The notes under the pieces are model-generated. The model was not told where the DNA came from, did no database searches, and worked only from the letters and a program-made list of their open reading frames with translations. Positions 1 to 11,998 of a DNA stretch of 11,998 nucleotides are shown here, piece after piece; the first letter of the stretch is position 1; each line of letters begins with the position of its first letter. The stretch lies in IMG/VR virus record IMGVR_UViG_2548876935_000016. One strand, 5' to 3'. This stretch comes from a virus (lineage: Duplodnaviria; Heunggongvirae; Uroviricota; Caudoviricetes). A program made the translations under genes and the position numbers.

Positions 1-258
1 ATGCAAACCGTTATTTTTGGTCGTTCGGGTTGCCCTTACTGTGTGCGTGCAAAAGATCTGGCTGAGAAATTGAGCAATGAACGCGATGATTTTCAGTATC
101 AGTATGTAGATATTCGTGAGGAAGGGATCACTAAAGAAGATCTACAACAAAAGGCAGGTAAACCCGTAGAAACCGTGCCGCAGATTTTTGTCGATCAGCA
201 ACATATCGGCGGCTATACCGATTTTGCTGCATGGGTGAAAGAAAATCTGGACGCCTGA
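1..258 (+). CDS. grxA: Glutaredoxin 1
   Basis: Complete 85-aa ORF starting at ATG position 1 and ending at TGA 256-258. Contains the CPYC redox motif (GRSGCPYCVRAK) and is near-identical to my recollection of E. coli GrxA. Confidence 0.95.
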   Translation: MQTVIFGRSGCPYCVRAKDLAEKLSNERDDFQYQYVDIREEGITKEDLQQKAGKPVETVPQIFVDQQHIGGYTDFAAWVKENLDA

Positions 259-267
259 TCGTCTGAC

Positions 268-300
268 AAGCCCTCGCGTTGAGGGCTTTACTGATTTTTT
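268..300 (+). terminator. Putative intrinsic terminator between convergent grxA and ybjM
   Basis: Inverted repeat aagccctc (268-275) / gagggctt (281-288) with 5-nt loop gcgtt, followed by tactgatttttt with a T6 run at 295-300. The T run is not immediately adjacent to the stem and the stem overlaps the ybjM 3' end, so this is tentative. Confidence 0.4.
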
Positions 301-665
301 CTGTGCTGTGGTTTAAACAAACTACTGATAAATAAGAAACACAGTGCCCCCAGCGCACACCAGAACACCGCGCTTAGTAACCATGCCAGCTCTTGCCAGA
401 ATGAGCGGGTCGGTGAAAAAAACAGCCGCATAATAAGCATTGAACAGGGTGCCGCCAGCATTGCGCCAAATAGAGGTTTCAGGACTTCTCTACTCTGTGA
501 AAAGAAACTGGCAACTGCTCCAGGAAGAATGAAAAACAGCAATCCGATTTCAGGATGCCCGGCAGCCCGAAAAGCGCCTTTCATGTGCGTCGCCAGAAAA
601 AGGCACACCACAATGAAGAGGACAAAACAGCAGATTGCCCCCGCCCAACGTTGTTTATGTTTCAC
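288..665 (-). CDS. ybjM: Inner membrane protein YbjM
   Basis: 125-aa hydrophobic ORF convergent with grxA. Length, sequence and synteny (between grxA and ybjL) match E. coli YbjM as I recall it. Confidence 0.88.
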   Translation of the reverse strand: MKHKQRWAGAICCFVLFIVVCLFLATHMKGAFRAAGHPEIGLLFFILPGAVASFFSQSREVLKPLFGAMLAAPCSMLIMRLFFSPTRSFWQELAWLLSAVFWCALGALCFLFISSLFKPQHRKNQ

Positions 666-934
666 TCGTTCCTCCTGACACTGCGTCTATCGAACACATT
701 TTTCGCCAGTGTGGCGTTCAGTAAGATAAAGCCGCTTCGCATTCCATGCTAATATAGGCCAACGCAATTCATATAGCCGTTGATACCTAATGTGATTACA
801 CTAGTAAAATATATTGTTACTTTACTATCGTTTAGGTGCGCTGAATGAATCTGCGCCCTGAATTCTGGTAAAAAACATTATCGTAAATTACCATTTCTTT
901 CAACAGCTTACTAGTAAACAAGAAGTTAGCCTCC

Positions 935-2620
935 GTGAATATAAACGTCGCCGAATTGTTAAATGGGAATTACATTCTGTTATTATTTGTGGTCCTCGCG
1001 CTTGGGCTATGTCTCGGAAAGTTACGACTTGGTTCGATCCAACTGGGTAATTCCATTGGCGTTTTGGTCGTATCACTGTTATTAGGCCAACAACATTTCA
1101 GCATTAACACCGACGCGCTTAATCTTGGCTTTATGCTGTTTATTTTCTGCGTCGGGGTCGAAGCCGGACCGAACTTTTTTTCCATTTTTTTTCGCGATGG
1201 GAAAAATTACCTAATGTTAGCACTGGTGATGGTTGGCAGTGCGCTGGTGATCGCCTTAGGGTTAGGTAAGCTGTTTGGCTGGGATATTGGCCTGACGGCC
1301 GGTATGTTAGCAGGCTCTATGACGTCGACACCGGTTCTGGTCGGTGCTGGCGATACACTGCGTCATTCCGGCATGGAAAGCAGGCAGCTCTCACTGGCAC
1401 TGGATAATCTGAGCCTCGGGTATGCCTTAACCTATTTAATCGGTCTGGTGAGTTTGATTGTTGGTGCGCGTTACTTGCCGAAATTGCAGCATCAGGACTT
1501 ACAGACCAGCGCCCAGCAAATCGCCCGCGAACGTGGCCTGGACACTGATGCCAACCGTAAGGTTTATTTACCGGTGATCCGCGCCTATCGCGTCGGCCCG
1601 GAGCTGGTGGCCTGGACCGACGGCAAAAATCTGCGTGAACTGGGTATTTATCGACAAACCGGCTGCTACATTGAACGTATTCGACGTAACGGGATTCTGG
1701 CAAATCCAGACGGTGATGCCGTGCTACAAATGGGCGATGAAATAGCGTTGGTAGGCTATCCCGACGCCCATGCCCGACTCGATCCCAGCTTCCGTAACGG
1801 TAAAGAAGTTTTCGATCGTGACCTTCTCGACATGCGTATCGTCACTGAAGAAGTGGTCGTTAAAAACCATAACGCTGTAGGTAAACGTCTCGCACAACTG
1901 AAGTTGACCGATCACGGTTGCTTCCTTAACCGCGTCATTCGTAGCCAGATTGAGATGCCGATAGATGACAACGTCGTGCTTAACAAAGGTGACGTTTTAC
2001 AAGTCAGCGGTGATGCCCGTCGCGTAAAAACCATCGCCGATCGCATCGGCTTTATCTCGATTCACAGCCAGGTCACTGACCTGCTGGCATTTTGCGCCTT
2101 CTTTGTTATTGGGCTGATGATCGGGATGATCACCTTCCAGTTCAGCACATTCAGTTTCGGCATGGGGAACGCTGCCGGGTTGTTATTCGCCGGAATTATG
2201 CTGGGCTTTATGCGTGCTAACCACCCGACCTTCGGTTACATTCCGCAAGGTGCATTAAGCATGGTGAAAGAGTTCGGCTTGATGGTGTTTATGGCAGGCG
2301 TTGGTCTGAGCGCCGGTAGCGGTATTAATAACGGCCTGGGCGCGATTGGCGGTCAGATGTTGATTGCCGGATTAATTGTCAGTCTTGTGCCCGTGGTTAT
2401 CTGTTTCTTGTTCGGTGCTTATGTATTGCGAATGAACCGCGCACTGTTGTTCGGCGCAATGATGGGCGCACGCACCTGCGCGCCGGCAATGGAGATCATC
2501 AGTGATACAGCTCGCAGTAACATCCCTGCGCTGGGCTATGCGGGCACCTACGCAATCGCCAACGTCCTGCTGACGCTGGCAGGGACAATCATCGTCATGG
2601 TATGGCCAGGATTAGGATAA
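935..2620 (+). CDS. ybjL: Putative transporter YbjL (AAE / aspartate:alanine exchanger family, two membrane domains with central cytoplasmic domain)
   Basis: 561-aa ORF with hydrophobic N- and C-terminal halves around a soluble central region. Starts at GTG 935 ([16 protein letters not shown]...). Matches E. coli YbjL in length and sequence from memory, and in synteny. Confidence 0.93.
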
Positions 2621-2855: not shown

Positions 2856-3074
2856 TCAAAGAGAGAGCGCCACCTGTCCTGATTTCATTGGATGCGGCTG
2901 AACCGGATTTGACTCTTTTGGCGTTGCAATCGAACGAACAAAAGTTTCATGGGTAACAAAAGTATGGCTGCAGTTAATGTTCTGGCACTGGTTGTAACGC
3001 TCTTTGGTCAATGAAGATACCTGAAAACTGCTGCGAGTATGGGCGGCACTTCCACACAGTGGGCAAATCATCAT
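2856..3074 (-). CDS. ogr: Ogr-family zinc-finger late-gene transcriptional activator
   Basis: 72-aa product MMICPLCGSAAHTRSS...KERYNQCQNINCSHTF with the CxxC...CxxxxC zinc-finger arrangement characteristic of P2 Ogr / P4 Delta. The track ORF starts at 3107, but a GGGGAGA Shine-Dalgarno sits 8 nt upstream of the ATG at 3074, which gives the 72-aa length I recall for P2 Ogr. Position immediately after D at the prophage end matches P2 gene order. Confidence 0.85.
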   Translation of the reverse strand: MMICPLCGSAAHTRSSFQVSSLTKERYNQCQNINCSHTFVTHETFVRSIATPKESNPVQPHPMKSGQVALSL

Positions 3075-3164
3075 TTTTCGAGTTCTCCCCATTTTTGCTA
3101 AATTCACAATAATGATACCGCATTATTCCATTTTGCAAACTTAAAAGTTCTCCATTGCGAAGAA

Positions 3165-4265
3165 TCATTCCATTTCGAAATCATCAATCCTCACTTCAAG
3201 CTCCAGACTGGTTGTAAAACCGTTATCCGGGCTGACGGTATGTGTCAGAGTCGTAATGGTCCATTCCGCATCATCTATCGGCTGTTTAAAACCACTGACC
3301 TTCACAGGCATTTCCGTGTAGAGATCTGCCCGCCCTTCCGCCAGTTGTAGCGAGAATGACGCAACGCCACGTTGCAGGCGTTCCCACTGCATTTTCGCTG
3401 CCCGTTCAGCGTTGCTCCGGTTGGCATAAGTGCGATTAAGTACCAGCACGTTTTCATCCGTCCCCACCAGGTAATCGCCCTGCTTCGCTTCCGGCTCTTT
3501 CTTCTGCTTCTTAGTCCTGCGCTTACGCTTCACCGTAGTGCTTTCTTTCTTCGCGGGTTCGCGGGTATGCAACCAGCTGGCAATTACCCCCGTGTAAGCT
3601 CCGCGATCTGCCAGGGTAAAGCGGTGACTGTCGCCGTCCTTACGTGTGATAGTAATCACCGGCAGTGGTTTACCGCTGGCGCTTTTGCCCTGTCCCTGCC
3701 GGATGAATAACAGATTGCCATTTTTCACCGATGCAATGGCACCGTACTGGCGCGCCAGCCGCATCAAAAAACTGCCGTCACTCTCATTAGTCTGGTCTAT
3801 ATGCTCCACGGGCTTATCCGACAGGTCTTTACCCAGTGCCATCTTCAGCTTGTGCCGCGCGGCTATTTCCTTCACCACTTCCCCGATGGTGGTGTTATGC
3901 CACGATTTTTCACGGCGGGTATTCAGCGTTTCCCGAAAATCAGCACTTCGCGCCCGGATAGTCAGGCGGTCCGGTGCGCCAGTGTGTTCAATCTCGTCTA
4001 CCGTGAATGCCCCTTTCGGGAAAAGCGGCTGCCCCTTCCAGCCCAGCGCCAGCGTAATGACCGCACCACGGCGCGGCAGCACGATTTTTCCGTCGGCGTC
4101 GTCCAGCTCCAGATCAAGCTGGTCCGCTTCAAAGCCCCGATTGTCCGTCAGCGTCAGACTCATCAGGCGGTTATCCAGCACAGTGGTGATATCCTTCCCC
4201 TCAATACTGATGCTGAATGCGGGAGTTTTGTTTCCTTTGTTAAGCAGTTCAGAGCTGAAATTCAC
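3165..4265 (-). CDS. D: Tail protein D (late control gene D family)
   Basis: 366-aa ORF with gpD-like motifs (LTLTDNRGFEADQLDLELDD...). Apparent GTG start at 4265 overlaps the U stop (GTGA), suggesting translational coupling. Position between U and ogr matches P2. Confidence 0.9.
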   Translation of the reverse strand: MNFSSELLNKGNKTPAFSISIEGKDITTVLDNRLMSLTLTDNRGFEADQLDLELDDADGKIVLPRRGAVITLALGWKGQPLFPKGAFTVDEIEHTGAPDRLTIRARSADFRETLNTRREKSWHNTTIGEVVKEIAARHKLKMALGKDLSDKPVEHIDQTNESDGSFLMRLARQYGAIASVKNGNLLFIRQGQGKSASGKPLPVITITRKDGDSHRFTLADRGAYTGVIASWLHTREPAKKESTTVKRKRRTKKQKKEPEAKQGDYLVGTDENVLVLNRTYANRSNAERAAKMQWERLQRGVASFSLQLAEGRADLYTEMPVKVSGFKQPIDDAEWTITTLTHTVSPDNGFTTSLELEVRIDDFEME

Positions 4266-4747
4266 GACAGCAGCCCTCCCACCGTTTTACTGATATCGCT
4301 TAAGGCAGACGTTGCCGTGTCCTGCAGATTATTCAGTTGAGTACTGAGATCACCGAACATATCGGACAGGGATTCATCCACCCGTTTTAGCGAAAGGGTG
4401 AACTCAATCCTGCGCGGCATACCGTCGCGGAAAAACTCCGTTTTAGTCTGATTCAGTCCCTCAATCACATACATGCCGTAAATCGTGCCGCTGCCTTCAA
4501 TCAGGGGCCATGCTTTCCCCTGTTCTGCCATCTGCTCCAGTGCCAGCAACGACAGCCTGCCGCCTGTTATCTCCGGCATAAGAACACCGGAAAGCGTCAG
4601 CATGTCGTTTTCCGGTCCCAGAAACTGCGTGGACGGACGACGGTTTACCCGGCTGTTTGCCGCATGTCGCCAGCTGCGTTGATACTGCAGTTCCTGATAC
4701 GGAACGGTGCGCAGCATAAACACGTACAATCCCAGCACCATCATCAT
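4262..4747 (-). CDS. U: Tail protein U (tail terminator-like)
   Basis: 161-aa ORF beginning MMMVLGLYVF... Its ATG overlaps the T stop codon (ATGA at 4744-4747). Size and order match P2 gpU. Confidence 0.9.
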   Translation of the reverse strand: MMMVLGLYVFMLRTVPYQELQYQRSWRHAANSRVNRRPSTQFLGPENDMLTLSGVLMPEITGGRLSLLALEQMAEQGKAWPLIEGSGTIYGMYVIEGLNQTKTEFFRDGMPRRIEFTLSLKRVDESLSDMFGDLSTQLNNLQDTATSALSDISKTVGGLLS

Positions 4748-7700
4748 GCGTCGTATCCCCCCTGATCGCTGTAGTTACTCCTGGCTTTTGCCTTCAGCCT
4801 GCGTTCACGTTCATCAAGCTGGCGTGCCACCTCCCGCGCAATATCCTGCGCACTTTGTCCTGGCTGCGTCTGAATGATGATCTGCGTCGGTGCCTCAATC
4901 CGTTGAACGAGCGGCACAGTGGCTGCGCGACTCACAATTGCTTCTCCACCTTTCGCGGGAAGTGCCAAAGGGTGCAACGGTGGAAGCTCTGCTGGCGCGG
5001 CAGCAACGCCCATCATTCCGGCAACAACGGCAGCCAGTGCAGCTGTATTTCTCCGGCTGGTCACATTTGCCGGGCCGTTAACAATTTCCGGCCCGTTTTC
5101 ACCGACGATGCCAAACTGCCCGCGCGGGATATAGCCGCCGCTGTCATACATCCCCGCAAAGCCATATCCCCATGACGGAAAACCACCCGATGGCATCATC
5201 ACTTTACCGTCTGCATTCACCGTCGCAGGTTGCTGACGCGTCACGCTTTCCGGCAGTTTCGCCTTTGCAGCCTCTTTACTGACAATGCCGAGTTTATCCA
5301 GCAACCACGACACACCTGATTTAAGCGACTCAAGCGGGTGCATCACCATATTCAGACCTTCTGCCAGCGCCTCACCAAATCTACGGCCCATTGCAGCTGC
5401 GCTGTTCAGTTCCTCAGAAGTCGATTTAACTGGCGAAAGTAAATCAGTGAACCAGCCCCACAATGCCTGCACCTTGTCGCCAATCCACTGGAAAACCGGC
5501 CGCAGTGGTTCAAATGCAGCACTGATCGGGCCAGCAGCCGCTTTAAAGCCTTCAACCACACCACCCAGAAAAGCGCTGATGGGCTGCCAGTATTTCCAGA
5601 CAACCAGCGCCACGCCTGCCAGTGCAGCCACAACCAGACCTATCGGACTGAGCAATACCCCAAGCACGCTGCCAACGCCCACCAGAGCTGCACGCAACAA
5701 CGCAAACGGTGACATGACGAGCCATCTAATCACACCCCCAGCCCCCCTTACCGAAGTAACCAACGGTGCAAAGGCAGCACTTGCCAGCCCGCGAATTTTC
5801 GTACCAAGCAGGCGGACCGCTTCGCCGGGGTTAAGAAAAGAAGACACCAGAGTTTCACCCGCCTGCCGGGCATGTTCTTTGATTTTATCCAGCGCCCCGT
5901 CGCGGAACGCATCCAGGATACCGCCACCGTCATCATCCCCGCCGCCGCTGAGTGCCTCTCGGATACGACTTATCCAGTTAACTGTCTCGCCCGCTTCATT
6001 TCCCGAAAACAGCCCGAATAGTTTTTTCAGTGCATCGCCGGACTGGAACAAACCGGGTGCAAATGAAGTGAACGCCTGGCCCAGGCGCCCCAGCAACGGA
6101 CTGAGCCTGCCAAGACCGGTGAGTGCCAGCGTTTTCATTCCAAAACGCAGCAGGGCGAGCGGCCCCAGAATGGCCGCCATCGCAATCGCCAGGGTGCCCA
6201 GCGCAAGCGTAACCGAAGCCACCACAGCGGCAATCTTCATCAACCGGCCCGCCAGTTCCGGATTAGCTTCCACCCAGCGGCGCATTACTCCCGTCACGCG
6301 CCTTACCGCTTCCATGATTTCCATCAGCGGAGCACGCAGCGTTTCACCCAGGCTGCTGAACGTATTGGTAACCCCGGTTTTCACCAGCAACCACTGAGCA
6401 GAAAGTGAGTCTTTGTTGATGTCGGATTCTTTCTGCATGGAACCGAGCGCATCATTGCCCGCTGTCAGTTTTAGCTGGCGCTGCAGTTCCGGAAGGTTGT
6501 TTGCCAGTTTCGCCGCGTCATCACCAAACTCTTTACCAAACAACATGGTCATGGCAGACAGACGCTTGTCCTGCGGCAGTGCGTTCACCTTCTCCAGCAC
6601 ACGCTGGATAGTTCCCATCGCATCCTTCGTCATCTGCTTTTCAATCACTTCAGGATTGAGTTTCAGCAGATTCATCCCTTCAAAGAAACTCTTGCTTTGC
6701 ATGGTGGCAATGGATAATTCACGCACCATCGCGTTTGCTGCACTGGCTGCAACCTCCGGCGCAGCGCCCAGTGTCAGAAAGGTGGAACCCAGTGCCGCCG
6801 CTTTACGATAATCCAGACGGTCAGCCACACCGCCCAGACGTTGCATCACATCAATGATGTCCGCCCCTTTCGACATGGCGTTATCATCCAGATAGTTCAG
6901 CGCATCGCCGAGCTGTTCAATATTGCGGGTAGGTATTTTGTAGAGCTGGGCGATTTTCCCCAGACTTTCTGACAGTTCATCCGCTGGCAGCTCAAAGGCT
7001 GTTGCCGCCTTTGCTGCCGTACTGGCGAAGGCCAGCAGGTCACGTTTCTGGTCTTCCCAGCTGTCGTCAGGGTTTGCGACGTTCATGCGCGCACCACCTT
7101 CAACCAGTGCAGCGAAATCCACCGCACCGTTTTCCATCGGCAACTGTTCGCTGGCAGCCTTGATGGCATCCTGCATTTCATAAAAACGTGCAGTGCGGTT
7201 GCCATTATCGTCACGCAGACCATTGACCTGCTTTGCCACACCTTTCATGGCATCTTCCATGCTGGTATAGCTTTTTACTGCCGCCATCACTGGTGCGCCC
7301 ATTGCCAGCCCTGCAGCCGTGGTGGTGGCTCCGGCACCTGCAATCCGATCCCTTACTTCAAGACGCCTGGCGTAAGCCCCTCGGGCGGCGTGCATTTTTC
7401 GCTGTTGCTCCCCGACACGTCGTAACCTCGCTTCCTGCTCAGAAAGCTGCCTGTTATAACGCATCGTTTCACGGGTAATGCGGGCCGTCGCACTGGCACC
7501 ATCATTAGCTGAAATACCAGCACGATAAAGTTCTGCACGCACAAGCGCCGTCTGCTGCTGCAGCTTTTTCTGGCGTTCTTCCAGGCGCTGAACAGCCAGC
7601 CGTTGACGGCCCAGAGCAACAACCTGACGTTGCGAAGGCGGCCCCATCGCTCCCAGTTCCTGACTGAGCAAATTTGCACGCTGGCGGGCATAGCTCAGCC

Positions 7701-7917
7701 TGTCGCCTAATTTCTGATTTTCTGCCTGCAGCTTTCGGAAGCTGTCCAGACTGCTCCCGGCCTGATCAAGCTGCTTTATTGCATCGCGGGATTTTTTGAC
7801 AGCAGCAGCCAGTTCTCTTGAACTGGCCTGCGCAGATCGAAATGGGCGGGTGAGCTTGTCAACCGCATTAAGAATGACCTGCAGACGCAGGTTATTGTCA
7901 CTCATGGCTGGCCCCAC
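4744..7917 (-). CDS. T: Tail tape measure protein
   Basis: 1057-aa ORF with an N-terminal coiled-coil-like charged region, Gly/Ala-rich hydrophobic central segments and a C-terminal region, typical of tape measure proteins, in the expected position between E/E' and U. The track start at 7917 is GTG; an in-frame ATG at 7905 overlaps the predicted E' stop and is an equally plausible true start. Confidence 0.9.
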   Translation of the reverse strand: MGPAMSDNNLRLQVILNAVDKLTRPFRSAQASSRELAAAVKKSRDAIKQLDQAGSSLDSFRKLQAENQKLGDRLSYARQRANLLSQELGAMGPPSQRQVVALGRQRLAVQRLEERQKKLQQQTALVRAELYRAGISANDGASATARITRETMRYNRQLSEQEARLRRVGEQQRKMHAARGAYARRLEVRDRIAGAGATTTAAGLAMGAPVMAAVKSYTSMEDAMKGVAKQVNGLRDDNGNRTARFYEMQDAIKAASEQLPMENGAVDFAALVEGGARMNVANPDDSWEDQKRDLLAFASTAAKAATAFELPADELSESLGKIAQLYKIPTRNIEQLGDALNYLDDNAMSKGADIIDVMQRLGGVADRLDYRKAAALGSTFLTLGAAPEVAASAANAMVRELSIATMQSKSFFEGMNLLKLNPEVIEKQMTKDAMGTIQRVLEKVNALPQDKRLSAMTMLFGKEFGDDAAKLANNLPELQRQLKLTAGNDALGSMQKESDINKDSLSAQWLLVKTGVTNTFSSLGETLRAPLMEIMEAVRRVTGVMRRWVEANPELAGRLMKIAAVVASVTLALGTLAIAMAAILGPLALLRFGMKTLALTGLGRLSPLLGRLGQAFTSFAPGLFQSGDALKKLFGLFSGNEAGETVNWISRIREALSGGGDDDGGGILDAFRDGALDKIKEHARQAGETLVSSFLNPGEAVRLLGTKIRGLASAAFAPLVTSVRGAGGVIRWLVMSPFALLRAALVGVGSVLGVLLSPIGLVVAALAGVALVVWKYWQPISAFLGGVVEGFKAAAGPISAAFEPLRPVFQWIGDKVQALWGWFTDLLSPVKSTSEELNSAAAMGRRFGEALAEGLNMVMHPLESLKSGVSWLLDKLGIVSKEAAKAKLPESVTRQQPATVNADGKVMMPSGGFPSWGYGFAGMYDSGGYIPRGQFGIVGENGPEIVNGPANVTSRRNTAALAAVVAGMMGVAAAPAELPPLHPLALPAKGGEAIVSRAATVPLVQRIEAPTQIIIQTQPGQSAQDIAREVARQLDERERRLKAKARSNYSDQGGYDA

Positions 7918-8334
7918 TTCTCTGAATCGCTTTATACCGCCATTCCAGCACTTCGGTCAGCGGCATAACGTCAGTAACGGATGGCGGCCAGTGAAAAATG
8001 GTGGCGATATCTGCCACCAGATCGTCAACCGTCAGGCTGTCGGTAAACCGGCAAGCACCGACTTCTTCAACAAAAAAGTGACAACCTCAACCGACATGGT
8101 TGTGAGATCTGCCGGGTCCATCTCTGCGATTTCCTGTGCAGTCAGTGCCGGACTGGAGATGCGGGGGATCACGGTCATCATCGCGTTCACATCCATATCC
8201 ATAATGGCCTGCAGGCGTGTGCCGCGCAGCGCACCGGACTGCGGTTTACGCAACACAATTTCGGTAATTTCTGTTTTACCGCGCATGATGGGGGTATCCA
8301 GTTGAATGGTCTTTTCAGTCTGTTTATCGCTCAT
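7898..8334 (-). CDS. E': Tail assembly chaperone E+E' (product of programmed -1 ribosomal frameshift)
   Basis: Hand translation: after a -1 slip on T TTT TTG (plus-strand 8071-8077, read on the minus strand) the -1 frame stays open for 57 codons (VEEVGACRFTDSLTVDDLVADIATIFHWPPSVTDVMPLTEVLEWRYKAIQRSGASHE) and stops at TGA 7900-7898, overlapping the T ATG at 7905. Predicted about 145 aa, close to the roughly 142 aa I recall for P2 E+E'. Confidence 0.6.
8032..8334 (-). CDS. E: Tail assembly chaperone E
   Basis: 100-aa ORF directly upstream of T and downstream of FII. Carries a TTTTTTG slippery heptamer 13 codons before its stop, as expected for the E/E' pair. Confidence 0.85.
   Translation of the reverse strand: MSDKQTEKTIQLDTPIMRGKTEITEIVLRKPQSGALRGTRLQAIMDMDVNAMMTVIPRISSPALTAQEIAEMDPADLTTMSVEVVTFLLKKSVLAGLPTA
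8071..8077 (-). other. Slippery heptamer T TTT TTG for the E/E' -1 frameshift
   Basis: Minus-strand sequence gtc ACT TTT TTG ttg in the E frame; heptamer of X XXY YYZ form located 13 codons before the E stop. Confidence 0.6.
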
Positions 8335-8388
8335 TTTGTTGTCCTGTCAATTGGGTTCTGGCGCGGTATCCCGCGCCGTTCAGATATA

Positions 8389-8904
8389 TCAGAGGCCGAG
8401 GGCGTTGCGGTGCGCTTCCATCAGGTCCACACCGTCCACAATTTCCACCATGTTGATAAGGTCCACTTCATAGAGCACCTCACCATTGATGGTCAGCTTC
8501 GCGTAGCTGTTGGTACTGGTCACTTTGGTGGTGTTGCTTTCGCCCGTCTTCCACTCGCCGGAATCCACTTCTTTGTGACGTCCACGCACGACAAGCTCCA
8601 CGGCCTGCACTTCCCCGGTATCGTCACGCTGGATAGAGCCGGTAAAGCGCAGCTGGATGCCATCCACCGTGGATTTGCCCATCTGCTTAAACAGCAGCAG
8701 TTCAGTACCACCAATGGAAAATTCTGTATCCAGTGCACTGTCATCCAGTCCCAGATCCACATCCACTGCACCCGGCATTCCGCCGCCGCGATACTTCTCA
8801 TATTTGCGGGTAAATTTCGGCAGCGTCAGCGACTCAACGATCCCCTGCCAGTTGTTCCCGTCGTTAAACAGGTTCAGGTGTTTTAATTTGCGTGGTAAAG
8901 CCAT
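8389..8904 (-). CDS. FII: Major tail tube protein
   Basis: 171-aa ORF immediately downstream of the sheath gene; size and order match P2 FII. Confidence 0.9.
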   Translation of the reverse strand: MALPRKLKHLNLFNDGNNWQGIVESLTLPKFTRKYEKYRGGGMPGAVDVDLGLDDSALDTEFSIGGTELLLFKQMGKSTVDGIQLRFTGSIQRDDTGEVQAVELVVRGRHKEVDSGEWKTGESNTTKVTSTNSYAKLTINGEVLYEVDLINMVEIVDGVDLMEAHRNALGL

Positions 8905-8913
8905 GTTGTCCCC

Positions 8914-10086
8914 TTACGCGCTGACCTGGCTGGCGAAATTCACCAGGTACTGATCGGTGATGCGCTGACGCAGCATCAGGTTTTCAAGTGGCGGCACTGG
9001 CGTGTAGTCGTAGTCGATGGTGAGTTTTCCGGCTTTCAGCGTGTCTTTGTCGTTCACCGACTCATCCAGCCAGCAATCACCACCAATGAGATAGCCCTGA
9101 CTGACCAGGCTGCGCATTTTGGCGCGGATACCTTCGATAATGTCGCGGGCCAGCGACGGGTTAAGCGTTTTATCCACCGCCCACATGTGTGCTTCTGCCA
9201 TCGTGTCCATCAGCACCTGCGCCGTGCGGGTGTAGTTTTCGAAGGCAAAGAGCGGGTCATCACTCAGGCAGCGGGAACCCCAGAAGCGGAAACCGTCTTT
9301 ACGCACAAGCGTGGTGACGTCGTTCTGGTTCAGCAGACCTGCATCGGTTGCCGGGTCCTGCAGATCCCAGAACACATCTGCAGAAATTCCGGTGACACCG
9401 TTCACGCCCACGTTGGACAGGCTTTTGTGCCATCCGGTCTGCTCGTCAATTTTGGCGCGCAGACCAAGCGCACGGGCGGTGGCATATGCCGTTGCTTCGG
9501 CATTCAGCACCGTGTCCCAGCCAGTAAAGTCAGGCCAGATCAGCATCCCTTCGCGCTGGCTGAAGTTTTCGCGGTAAGTGATCGCCTCCTGCACTGTCTT
9601 GCAGCCATACGCTGACAGGTAAGCAAATCCACGCAGGCTTTGCGCCACGCTCAGCAACTCAGTAGCTACCGCCTTGGTGTCGTGGCCTGGCACGCCGAGA
9701 ATGCGCGGTTTAACGCCGAGCTGTGACTGGGCAGATAACAGGGCTTTCATACCTGTTTTTTTACCTTCAGCAGTCACTGCGCCGATGATATTGGTCGTGG
9801 TTTCGTCTTCCGTTTCACCCTGCGGCACACGCACAACAATGGTCACGGGTTTTGCCTGGTCAGCGATGGCATCCAGCGAACGGGCCAGAGTACCGGACTC
9901 ACCCGCTTTACCGCTGGCAGTCAGCACATCAGTGATCAGCACGGGTTTATTAAGAGGAAACATTTTTGCATCGGCATCATCGCCCGTGCAGACCATACCC
10001 ACGATGGCGGTGCTCACCGTGGTAATAGATCGGGTGCCTTCGTTGACTTCAACAACGCGCACCCCGTGGTGGTAATCCTGAGCCAT
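8914..10086 (-). CDS. FI: Contractile tail sheath protein
   Basis: 390-aa ORF, first gene of the FI-FII-E-T-U-D operon, with AGGAGG 9 nt upstream of the ATG. Sequence family and size match P2 FI. Confidence 0.92.
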
Positions 10087-10162
10087 AGTGGCGAACCTCC
10101 TGATTGGATTAGGCTTCGCCCTATGTTGAAGTGATTGTGCCTGACAAACAGCTAAGCGCAGT

Positions 10163-10180
10163 TGTGTCGTTATTCACACA
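10163..10180 (-). promoter_or_regulatory. Candidate Ogr-dependent late promoter element (TGT-N12-ACA dyad) for the FI operon
   Basis: TGTGTCGTTATTCACACA fits the TGT-N12-ACA dyad I recall for P2/P4 late promoters, and the outer TTGTGT / ACACAA arms are perfect inverted repeats. The dyad centre is about 85 bp upstream of the FI ATG, consistent with a -55 activator site plus a short leader. No strong -35 is visible, as expected for an activator-dependent promoter. Confidence 0.5.
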
Positions 10181-10228
10181 AAATAACGGTATTTGTCTGC
10201 TTGCAGGGATAATCAACATAATGCTGAT

Positions 10229-10795
10229 TCAGGGGGATTCATTGATCTTATTTGCCGGAAATTTTCTATAAATGGTAGAAACGCCTACATCAAAAATCAG
10301 TGCAATACGCTGTCTTGATTCTCCGGCCTCGAGTAAACGCCCAATCTGTGCCCACTGTTCGGTGGTCAACTTAGGACGGCGTCCACCTACTCTGCCTTTG
10401 GTACGAGCTGCAGCCAGCCCTGCCCTGGTACGTTCAACTATCAGTTCGCGTTCCATTTCAGCCAGGGCACCCATGACATGAAAAAAGAAACGGCCCATTG
10501 GGGTACTGGTATCAATACTGTCAGTCAGGCTTCTGAAATTCACACCACGCTGGCGCAACTCTTCTATCAGCGTAACAAGATGCCGCATACTGCGCCCCAA
10601 CCTGTCCAGCTTCCAGACAACCAGCGTGTCTCCTGCCGATAGTATCCTGAGCAGTTTTTTCAGCCCCGGTCTGTCGGACTTAGTGCCACTGATTTTATCC
10701 TCAAAAATCCGCTCACATCCCGCGCAGTTCAGCGCATTGCGTTGCAAATCGGTGTTCTGGTCATTTGTTGACACGCGTACATAGCCAATAAGCAT
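10229..10795 (-). CDS. Serine site-specific DNA invertase (Gin/Cin/Pin/Hin family)
   Basis: 188-aa product MLIGYVRVSTNDQNTDLQRNAL... with the catalytic-serine N-terminal motif and a C-terminal helix-turn-helix, closely resembling Mu Gin as I recall it. The track start at 10801 gives MTM...; the ATG at 10795 has AAGGAGA at good spacing and matches the family N-terminus. Confidence 0.9.
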   Translation of the reverse strand: MLIGYVRVSTNDQNTDLQRNALNCAGCERIFEDKISGTKSDRPGLKKLLRILSAGDTLVVWKLDRLGRSMRHLVTLIEELRQRGVNFRSLTDSIDTSTPMGRFFFHVMGALAEMERELIVERTRAGLAAARTKGRVGGRRPKLTTEQWAQIGRLLEAGESRQRIALIFDVGVSTIYRKFPANKINESP

Positions 10796-10822
10796 GGTCA
10801 TCTCCTTGAATAAAAATCGGGG

Positions 10823-11317
10823 ATGATGCCAGTTAGTCGTAATCGCTGCATTTTCTTAAACGTTGGTTTGGGAGAAGGTGCTCCAGCTATTGGCGTTCCG
10901 TTCTTCTGGCCGTCCGCCGCAATGCCAAATACTGTAATCGACAGTTGGTCCAGTATGGTGTTTTTGAAGTTCAACGGCGCGAAATTCTCTGCCACTGATT
11001 ACCCTGTGCTGGCGAAAGTGTTTCCGGCGCTAGCATTACCTGACGCACGCGGTGAATTCCCACGCATCTGGGATGACGGGCGCGGTGTGGATGCTGGACG
11101 CACGTTATTAAGCTTTCAAAGTGACGACTTTAAGGCCCACGGTCATAACTTCGAATCCTGGCCCGACAGCGGCAATCCGGCATCAAAAGGGGGGGCTGTA
11201 GATGCTCGCGGCGGTAATGGAAATAGATACATCACATCGGGTGTGGTCAAGGAAACGGGAGGCACCGAAACCCGACCAAGAAACATAGCATTCAACTTTT
11301 TAGTAAGGGCGAAATAA
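10823..11317 (+). CDS. Tail fibre variable C-terminal cassette (Mu S / P1 S / Stf-like variable part), currently detached from its constant N-terminal part
   Basis: Open frame ending ...GGTETRPRNIAFNFLVRAK, with the LPDARGEFPRIWDDGRGVDAGR motif typical of invertible tail-fibre C-termini. There is no upstream tail-fibre body on this strand, the frame crosses the crossover site, and its stop overlaps the downstream tfa start (TAATG). The ATG at 10823 is probably not a real start. Confidence 0.75.
   Translation: MMPVSRNRCIFLNVGLGEGAPAIGVPFFWPSAAMPNTVIDSWSSMVFLKFNGAKFSATDYPVLAKVFPALALPDARGEFPRIWDDGRGVDAGRTLLSFQSDDFKAHGHNFESWPDSGNPASKGGAVDARGGNGNRYITSGVVKETGGTETRPRNIAFNFLVRAK
10851..10876. other. 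gix/cix/hix-like 26-bp inversion crossover site (left boundary of invertible tail-fibre segment)
   Basis: TTTTCTTAAACG-TT-GGTTTGGGAGAA: two imperfect inverted 12-bp half-sites around a 2-bp core, matching the TTnTCnnAAACC half-site pattern of Gin/Cin/Hin recombination sites. It lies about 55 bp from the invertase start and inside the tail-fibre reading frame, as gix lies inside Mu S. Confidence 0.6.
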
Positions 11318-11910
11318 TGACACCTGTTTTTGATGAAAATGGACTGGCTACAGTGCCTGGTGATATGCGTTGTTTTTATTATAATGCAGTAACGTATGAA
11401 TATATGGGCTGGTCTGATGAATATATTAATACTGGTGTAAGTATGCCCGCCTGCTCCACTGGTATTGACCCTGGCGAATACATTCCGGGAAGAGTGGCAG
11501 TATTTACGGGTAAGGGATGGAGCCATGAAGAAGACCATCGCAATGAGACCGTTTACTCAACTGAAAATGGCGCAGCTGTTACAGTGGATTATATCGGTGC
11601 CATCAAAGACGGTTATGTCACGCTTTCACCGTTAACGCCATACGATAAATGGGATGGTGAGAAATGGGTGACGGATACCGAGGCACAGCATAGCGCCGCA
11701 GTAGAAGCGGCAGAAGCACAGCGCCAGTCGCTGATTGATGCTGCAATGGCTTCCATCAGTCTGATTCAACTGAAATTACAGGCTGGGCGGAAGCTGACGC
11801 AGCCAGAAAACACCCGACTTAACGCTGTGCTGGATTACATTGACGCGGTGACGGCAACAGATACCAGCACAGCGCCGGACGTCATCTGGCCTGAACTGCC
11901 GGAGGCGTAG
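11317..11910 (+). CDS. Tail fibre assembly protein (Tfa / Mu U / P2 G family)
   Basis: 197-aa ORF translationally coupled to the fibre cassette. C-terminus ...TAPDVIWPELPEA resembles the conserved Tfa C-terminal motif. Confidence 0.88.
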   Translation: MTPVFDENGLATVPGDMRCFYYNAVTYEYMGWSDEYINTGVSMPACSTGIDPGEYIPGRVAVFTGKGWSHEEDHRNETVYSTENGAAVTVDYIGAIKDGYVTLSPLTPYDKWDGEKWVTDTEAQHSAAVEAAEAQRQSLIDAAMASISLIQLKLQAGRKLTQPENTRLNAVLDYIDAVTATDTSTAPDVIWPELPEA

Positions 11911-11998
11911 GCCATTCAATATCTGGCGCACCGGAAGTATCGACCAGTTCCAGTGCGTCCAGATAATCCAGCCACAAATTATATTGCGCCAGTTCCTC
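11882..11998 (-). CDS. Alternative tail fibre assembly protein (Tfa'), 3' end only; 5' part beyond window
   Basis: Hand translation of the minus strand gives ...EELAQYNLWLDYLDALELVDTSGAPDIEWPTPPAVQAR followed by TGA (11884-11882). It shares the ...APD(I/V)xWP..P C-terminal motif with the plus-strand Tfa, and the two genes converge with 3' ends overlapping by about 29 nt. Confidence 0.75.
   Translation of the reverse strand, partial: EELAQYNLWLDYLDALELVDTSGAPDIEWPTPPAVQAR

Follow-up and report, generated by a model that had tools for sequence, protein, structure and literature searches.

The 26-bp element at positions 10851-10876 of the DNA stretch analysed here (11,998 nucleotides, referred to as the window) is very probably the invertase-proximal crossover site, equivalent to pixR or gixR, of a two-site, Pin-type invertible tail-fibre segment in a P2-like Escherichia coli prophage. 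As judged from its sequence, the element is a crossover site of the Din family of invertases (Hin/Gin/Cin/Pin). Its inverted partner with an identical core lies in the fibre gene H just beyond the window, and the segment between the two sites is found in nature in both orientations.

The window consists of E. coli DNA that carries, from about position 2850 on, a P2-like prophage on the minus strand (Table 1). Many E. coli genomes match the host part at 99.5% identity. As ybjL is followed by the ogr-like gene and D, the prophage end (attR) should be located between about 2620 and 2856; a tRNA scan of the window for a gene marking the attachment site gave none. Within the prophage part, we observed a tail assembly chaperone pair on the minus strand, composed of a Phage_TAC_7 ORF (8032-8334) and a 39-aa GpE ORF (7898-8017), which runs into the start of the tape measure gene. 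The pair corresponds to the E/E+E' arrangement usual in P2, in which a programmed -1 frameshift is involved.

Table 1 Features of the window and of its continuation in the contig L002. Coordinates are window positions.
Feature	Position	Strand	Basis or remark
grxA, ybjM, ybjL (935-2620)	within 1-2620		host
ogr/Delta-like zinc-finger gene	2856-3107	-
D	3165-4265	-
U	4262-4747	-
Tape measure gene T	4744-7917	-
E/E'	7898-8334	-
Tube gene FII	8389-8904	-
Sheath gene FI	8914-10086	-
Serine DNA invertase, Pin subfamily, 188 aa, start MLIGYVRVS	10229-10795	-	Pfam Resolvase 1.2e-52 and HTH_7 1.4e-15
Stretch homologous to the P1 cin enhancer (gene nt 19-90), putatively Fis-bound	10706-10777	-	annotation of the P1 record and homology
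55-nt spacer between site and invertase start codon	10796-10850	-	alignment with e14 pixR-pinE and Mu gixR-gin
26-bp crossover site, pixR type (predicted)	10851-10876	.	match to published sites, top matrix score, inversion breakpoint
Outer half TTTTCTTAAACG	10851-10862
Core dinucleotide TT (AA on the minus strand)	10863-10864
Inner half GGTTTGGGAGAA	10865-10876
Silent alternative C-terminal cassette of tail fibre H, 150 residues, GLGE-GAPAIGVPFFWPS...	10865-11317	+	weak Phage Tail Collar domain, in-frame fusion
Tail fibre assembly (chaperone) gene paired with the silent cassette, inside the invertible segment	11317-11910	+	Caudo_TAP 2.2e-27; annotated so in relatives
3' end of the converging assembly gene paired with the expressed fibre C-terminus; runs off the window	11882-11998	-	continuation in L002
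Gene H, 466-aa fibre	12349-13749 (window-equivalent, beyond the window)	-	L002

A sequence-only reading of this DNA had proposed that the 26-mer at 10851-10876 has the dyad half-site pattern of gix, cix and hix sites. This pattern is present, with two imperfect 12-bp inverted half-sites (TTC....AAAC. and.GTTT....GAA) flanking a 2-bp core. A sequence search located the 26-mer, TTTTCTTAAACGTTGGTTTGGGAGAA, only once in the window even when three mismatches were allowed, and not a single match (at most three mismatches) occurred in 200 shuffles. We also scored the window with a half-site weight matrix derived from published hix, gix, cix and bix sites, from which pix and mix sites were excluded. 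Position 10851 ranked first with 23.8 bits, compared to 14.1 bits for the runner-up and a maximum of 18.2 bits on 200 shuffled windows. The runner-up (TCATGGTATGGCCAGGATTAGGATAA, 2595-2620) is located in the 3' end of ybjL near the prophage boundary; its score falls below the shuffle maximum, and it is probably a chance match.

Read on the opposite strand, the site is TTCTCCCAAACC-AA-CGTTTAAGAAAA, which is identical to pixR of e14 (TTCTCCCAAACC-AA-CGTTTATGAAAA) at 25 of 26 positions. The corresponding numbers are 21 for pixL, 20 for mixMI''L', 19 each for hixL, cixL and cixR, and 17 for gix. The gix, cix and pixR sequences were confirmed in the Mu, P1 and K-12 records, and a published table of Din-family sites gives hixL as TTCTTGAAAACC AA GGTTTTTGATAA (PMC3241671). 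As the matrix score at 10851 is the highest in the window and exceeds those of all shuffles, the resemblance is not confined to AAAC/GTTT and is not due to chance; the alignment to gix, cix, hix and pix sites, proposed as a check of the initial reading, bears this out. The reading had further remarked that the TT core differs from those of both gix and hix. This holds for gix, which has GA, but not for hix, which has the same core (AA on the conventional strand); the apparent difference arose because the opposite strand was read. On the conventional strand, AA is the core of hixL/R, cixL/R, pixL/R and mix, and GA occurs only in gix and bix. The features of the Pin subfamily are found together here: the inner half TTCTCCCAAACC, the AA core, an outer half of the CGTTTA.GAAAA type on the invertase-proximal side, and an invertase to which PinE is closest.

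The neighbouring invertase shares 84% identity with PinE (e14), 77% with Cin (P1) and 74% with Gin (Mu); among solved structures, Gin matches it best (3uj3, E 1e-92). Its ORF is intact, the catalytic Ser in YVRVS is conserved, and transcription runs away from the invertible segment. The protein also retains the Gln, Arg and Leu residues of helix 1 of the DNA-binding domain, which are invariant in the alignment, as well as the basic residues of helix B. According to a study on Hin, these residues are conserved only among the invertases that depend on Fis and the enhancer (PMC3798978).

The spacer between the site and the invertase gene holds an AAGGAG ribosome-binding site and a motif, TGGCATCAT (plus strand ATGATGCCA, 10823-10831), which is conserved in e14, equally far from the site, and nearly so in Mu. 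Wherever it was readable among related loci (82 of 82), the distance from the site to the invertase start was 54-55 nt. A scan around the site for the sigma-70 promoter consensus and for terminators detected neither. Nevertheless, the spacer is probably the seat of the invertase promoter, and a promoter may overlap the site itself. The ATG codons at 10823 and 10826, which open a 164-aa ORF across the site, are probably not real starts; the motif ATGATGCCA more likely belongs to a control region upstream of the invertase.

A recombinational enhancer may in addition lie within the 5' part of the invertase gene. The putative element is 78% identical to the annotated P1 enhancer, compared to 71% for the remainder of the gene, and 88% identical to the corresponding part of pinE, compared to 79% for the remainder. 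Inspection of invertase nt 19-105 by eye gave no convincing pair of Fis consensus sites (G-N13-C with an AT-rich centre, about 48 bp apart). Codons 1-30 show the least synonymous diversity among 68 distinct related invertase genes (0.06-0.22 vs 0.29-0.36 elsewhere), a difference that may also stem from linkage to the site by which the loci were chosen or from constraint on translation initiation. The low synonymous variation at 10706-10795 (minus strand) fits a DNA element within coding sequence, for example an enhancer.

Inside the window, neither the exact and three-mismatch searches nor an inverted-repeat scan revealed a partner site. A single pair of inverted repeats touched the site (629-652 and 10859-10882, 71% complementary) and was dismissed as a chance match to the host region. 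The partner was found in the contig L002 (GCA_026193075.1), which was identified via the 197-aa assembly protein of the window, is 100% identical to window positions 5317-11998 and extends past the window end. There, the sequence TTCTCCCAAACC-AA-GGTATGTGAGAA lies in inverted orientation inside gene H (L002 7372-7397, equivalent to window positions 12688-12713), about 700 bp past the end of the window, so that an inverted partner with the identical core dinucleotide, as anticipated by the sequence-only reading, does exist. In the orientation of the window it reads TTCTCACATACC TT GGTTTGGGAGAA, with the core and the inner half as at 10851-10876 and a different outer half; only 15 bases, 10863-10877 and the partner equivalent, are identical between both sites. 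The two cores are 1839 bp apart. L002 contains only two high-scoring sites, with 23.8 and 22.7 bits, the next best position scoring 12.0 bits. The same pair of sites in the same arrangement is present in the 96% identical prophage of E. coli CE0021a (L001). The existence of the partner is read from these identical and near-identical public contigs.

The invertible segment is made up of two cassette-and-chaperone pairs only. Upon inversion, the silent cassette of the window supplies residues 351-500 of H. The two fibre-assembly genes converge with an overlap of 29 nt (11882-11910), and their 3' ends carry an 18-nt imperfect inverted repeat (GCTGGATTACATTGACGC / GCGTCCAGATAATCCAGC, at 11829-11846 and 11955-11972), which recurs in CE0021a and e14. 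This repeat probably reflects a conserved C-terminal peptide coded on both strands rather than a further site.

The location of the site also bears on how the fibre gene is read. In the ORF 10823-11317, the site is translated in frame (att ttc tta aac gtt ggt ttg gga gaa = I-F-L-N-V-G-L-G-E), in agreement with the approximate FLNVGLGE given earlier. When L002 was inverted in silico between the two cores (1839 bp), an uninterrupted H of 500 aa resulted, in which the first 354 residues were unchanged and the C-terminus was that of the window cassette. The claim that inversion exchanges the fibre C-terminus without breaking the frame is borne out by this constant part of 354 residues, and both H fusions are open reading frames. 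The partner in H reads ...G-L-L-T-Y-L-G-L-G-E-A-A-K..., and the silent copy reads ...F-L-N-V-G-L-G-E-G-A-P.... Mu (FIQN-LGLQE), P1 (VIQY-LGLRE) and the window element (LLTY-LGLGE) have the peptide and the frame across the site in common, and in all three the core occupies the second and third positions of a Leu codon. As the core, the inner half-site and the frame are the same at both sites, each flip joins the N-terminus of H in frame to the alternative C-terminus. The site had been placed at the junction between the constant and the variable part of the fibre. It does mark the start of a variable fibre C-terminus, but the copy at 10851 borders the silent cassette instead of the expressed fibre gene. 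The outer half of this copy (10851-10862) is part of the spacer upstream of the invertase gene and not of the constant fibre part, which is located on the minus strand about 1.8 kb rightward, outside the window.

Natural inversion of the segment is seen in public sequences. L003 (GCA_026208275.1, 7032 nt), which stems from another isolate, is contained letter for letter in the L002 sequence inverted in silico but not in native L002; two sequence-identical isolates therefore differ only in the orientation of the segment. The switch point lies within the 15 bp common to both sites (10863-10877), a resolution coarser than the 2-bp core. L005, a Logan contig of 1839 nt present in 10 sequencing runs, corresponds exactly to the segment from core TT to core AA, and the bases that adjoin the cores on the outside are not the same at the two sites (G or C). 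Such core-to-core contigs are expected of a k-mer assembly graph only if both junctions are among the reads. They are as expected if both orientations are present within the sequenced cultures, for which the contig breaks are indirect evidence. Among 5426 complete E. coli genomes, the junction seen in the window (invertase, site and collar cassette) is covered to at least 80% in 251, and the flipped junction (invertase, site and gp53-like cassette) is covered to the same extent in 108. Matches of the window to phage records in BLAST searches break at 10852-10877. We further observed that L003 (at its position 1), L007 and nine IMG/VR loci end at or near the site. Public assemblies, among them L003, L005-L007 and the IMG/VR loci L017, L037, L039, L042, L080 and L117, often stop within a few bases of it or give exactly the segment as a contig of its own. 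Assemblies thus break at the site repeatedly, and which orientation a finished genome shows is arbitrary.

At least 120 IMG/VR contigs contain the pixR-type 26-mer. In a comparison of 106 distinct contexts, the outer 30 nt are conserved (mean majority fraction of 87%, 24 distinct variants), whereas the inner 30 nt vary strongly (57% and 63 variants) and belong to several cassette families. In 73 IMG/VR loci, two inverted sites are located 1457-1986 bp apart. Three related IMG/VR loci (L052, L117 and L123) carry three to four copies of the core and inner half (TTGGTTTGGGAGAA), several of them in direct orientation, which suggests multi-cassette (Min-like) forms of the switch. In phage vB_EcoM-611R5, the window cassette terminates an annotated side tail fibre gene, and the invertase gene is truncated. 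The exact site is present in three species-representative genomes, two of E. coli and one of Shigella flexneri, a set that holds one genome per species and is uninformative on spread. With a wider query of 1.9 kb, up to 11 matching places were obtained per E. coli genome.

Din invertases introduce staggered double-strand breaks at the core via a covalent phosphoserine intermediate. In the system described here, dimers of the adjacent serine invertase would bind to the site at 10851-10876 and to the inverted partner in gene H, and both sites would assemble with the putative Fis-bound enhancer in the 5' part of the invertase gene into an invertasome on supercoiled DNA. Both sites would then be cut with a 2-nt stagger at the central TT/AA, and one pair of subunits would rotate by 180 degrees before the ends are rejoined, leaving the segment inverted. 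Each flip would couple the 354 N-terminal residues of H to one of two receptor-binding cassettes with the matching chaperone gene downstream; in the orientation of the window, the cassette 10865-11317 and the chaperone gene 11317-11910 would be silent. The dependence on Fis and an enhancer, the staggered cut, the rotation of subunits and the effect on host range are inferred here by analogy; the mechanism itself has been described for Hin, Fis and the enhancer (PMC3798978).

The site might be of the Din type by descent and belong to a switch that is now dead, with the invertase, the enhancer or the partner inactive and the segment frozen. Decay is known for many prophage inversion systems, the fibre gene stfE adjacent to the site in K-12 e14 is annotated as a pseudogene, and the truncated invertase gene of vB_EcoM-611R5 would fit such a fate. 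We nevertheless consider this very unlikely for the window element, in which the invertase ORF is intact with its catalytic and Fis-contact residues conserved and both H fusions are open. Moreover, two 100% identical isolates carry the segment in opposite orientations, and contigs from 10 runs end exactly at both cores. Still less probable is a chance AAAC..GTTT dyad in the AT-rich spacer without any function in recombination. Short dyads are common and the half-sites of the family are degenerate, but chance resemblance is refuted by the 25 of 26 positions shared with pixR, a matrix score above all 200 shuffles, the fixed 54-55 nt to the invertase start in 82 loci, the inverted partner with its identical core, and the natural breakpoints at the site.

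RecA-dependent homologous recombination between the inverted repeats could likewise invert the segment, as prophage inverted repeats can mediate such events. Here, however, the sites have only 15 identical bases in common, the repeat is a canonical invertase site and a dedicated invertase gene adjoins it, which makes this route extremely improbable. Fifteen identical bases are far too short for efficient RecA recombination. Finally, more than two cassettes might be shuffled in a multi-site system such as Min of p15B or the four-variant locus of P2-like EPEC prophages. The three related IMG/VR loci with three to four copies of core and inner half would be in line with this, as would the interlaced inversions in an EPEC P2-like prophage (PMC4272514). 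The chances of this for the window element are nevertheless minimal, as only two positions score in L002 (23.8 and 22.7 vs 12.0 bits) and the segment has just two cassette-and-chaperone pairs. With two sites, two cassettes and a serine instead of a tyrosine recombinase, the element belongs neither to the Min/mix systems nor to the Rci shufflons, which are marked by sfx sites.

As a two-site Pin-type switch, the window element most closely resembles the P segment of e14 in K-12 with pixR/pixL and PinE. The near-identity to pixR includes the unusual CGTTT outer half-site, the AA core and an identical inner half TTCTCCCAAACC. In both elements, the site is followed by an alignable spacer of about 54 nt and an invertase gene (84% identity of the protein) that is transcribed away from the segment, and in both the segment comprises two fibre C-terminal cassettes and two converging assembly-chaperone genes. 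In contrast, e14 is a lambdoid remnant, whereas the window element is a P2-like myovirus prophage beside ybjL; the outer half of pixL is GGTTTTCGAGAG, whereas that of the partner described here is GGTATGTGAGAA, which is closer to cixR (GGTAT...); and stfE is a pseudogene, whereas the two fibre fusions of the window element are intact ORFs.

P1 with cixL/cixR and Cin has in common with the window element the core TT (read outer-core-inner), identical inner and different outer halves, the GGTAT variant at the fibre-side site and the frame across the site (VIQY-LGLRE and LLTY-LGLGE); the P1 record places an enhancer in the 5' part of cin, to which the putative element of the window corresponds. 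P1 differs in that cin points towards the segment and its 3' end is overlapped by cixL, whereas in the window it is the 5' end of the invertase gene that lies towards the site. The C segment of P1 is also larger (4.2 kb) with long internal inverted repeats, and site identity is 19 of 26. In Mu, gixR is likewise separated by a spacer (56 nt) from gin, which is transcribed away from the G segment, Sv/U is swapped for Sv'/U' in the same frame across the site, and Gin is the closest solved structure. Unlike the site described here, gix has the core GA/TC, the two gix sites are identical over 26 bp, only 17 of 26 positions match, and the invertase is 74% identical.

Inversion in e14 and in P2-like E. 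coli prophages (EPEC) has been demonstrated experimentally in a study that also refers to the work of Kutsukake et al. 2006 on the two DNA invertases of flagellar phase variation in Salmonella (PMC4272514). The P2-like loci of EPEC E2348/69 and Salmonella Fels-2 (Fin) are similar to the window element in the type of phage and in the position between fibre and sheath genes, a likeness drawn from their description. The second of the two Salmonella invertases is Fin of the P2-like prophage Fels-2. The system in the window is a member of a textbook family, of a type already known in P2-like prophages, and involves no new principle.

A more speculative idea, which we regard as unlikely, is that the invertase and the pixR-type site take part in cross-talk between prophages, or that the weak outer half-site, located upstream of the invertase gene, also serves the invertase as an operator for autoregulation. 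The cross-talk idea derives from the presence of the same pixR-type site in many different prophages, and trans-complementation among Din invertases is known in principle. If true, invertases might act in trans on each other's segments, or now and then join sites of two different prophages, with large chromosomal inversions or an exchange of cassettes as the outcome.

For the annotation of such prophages, the ORF 10823-11317, listed as "phage tail protein" in the 96% identical relative, would be an alternative fibre tip that lacks a promoter rather than a gene in its own right, and the fibre gene H of the window prophage would have two products. Assemblies tend to break at the site or to freeze the segment arbitrarily in one orientation. 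Taken as proposed here, the system would correspond, in a P2-like prophage, to the bet-hedging switch of host range that is classical in Mu, P1 and e14.
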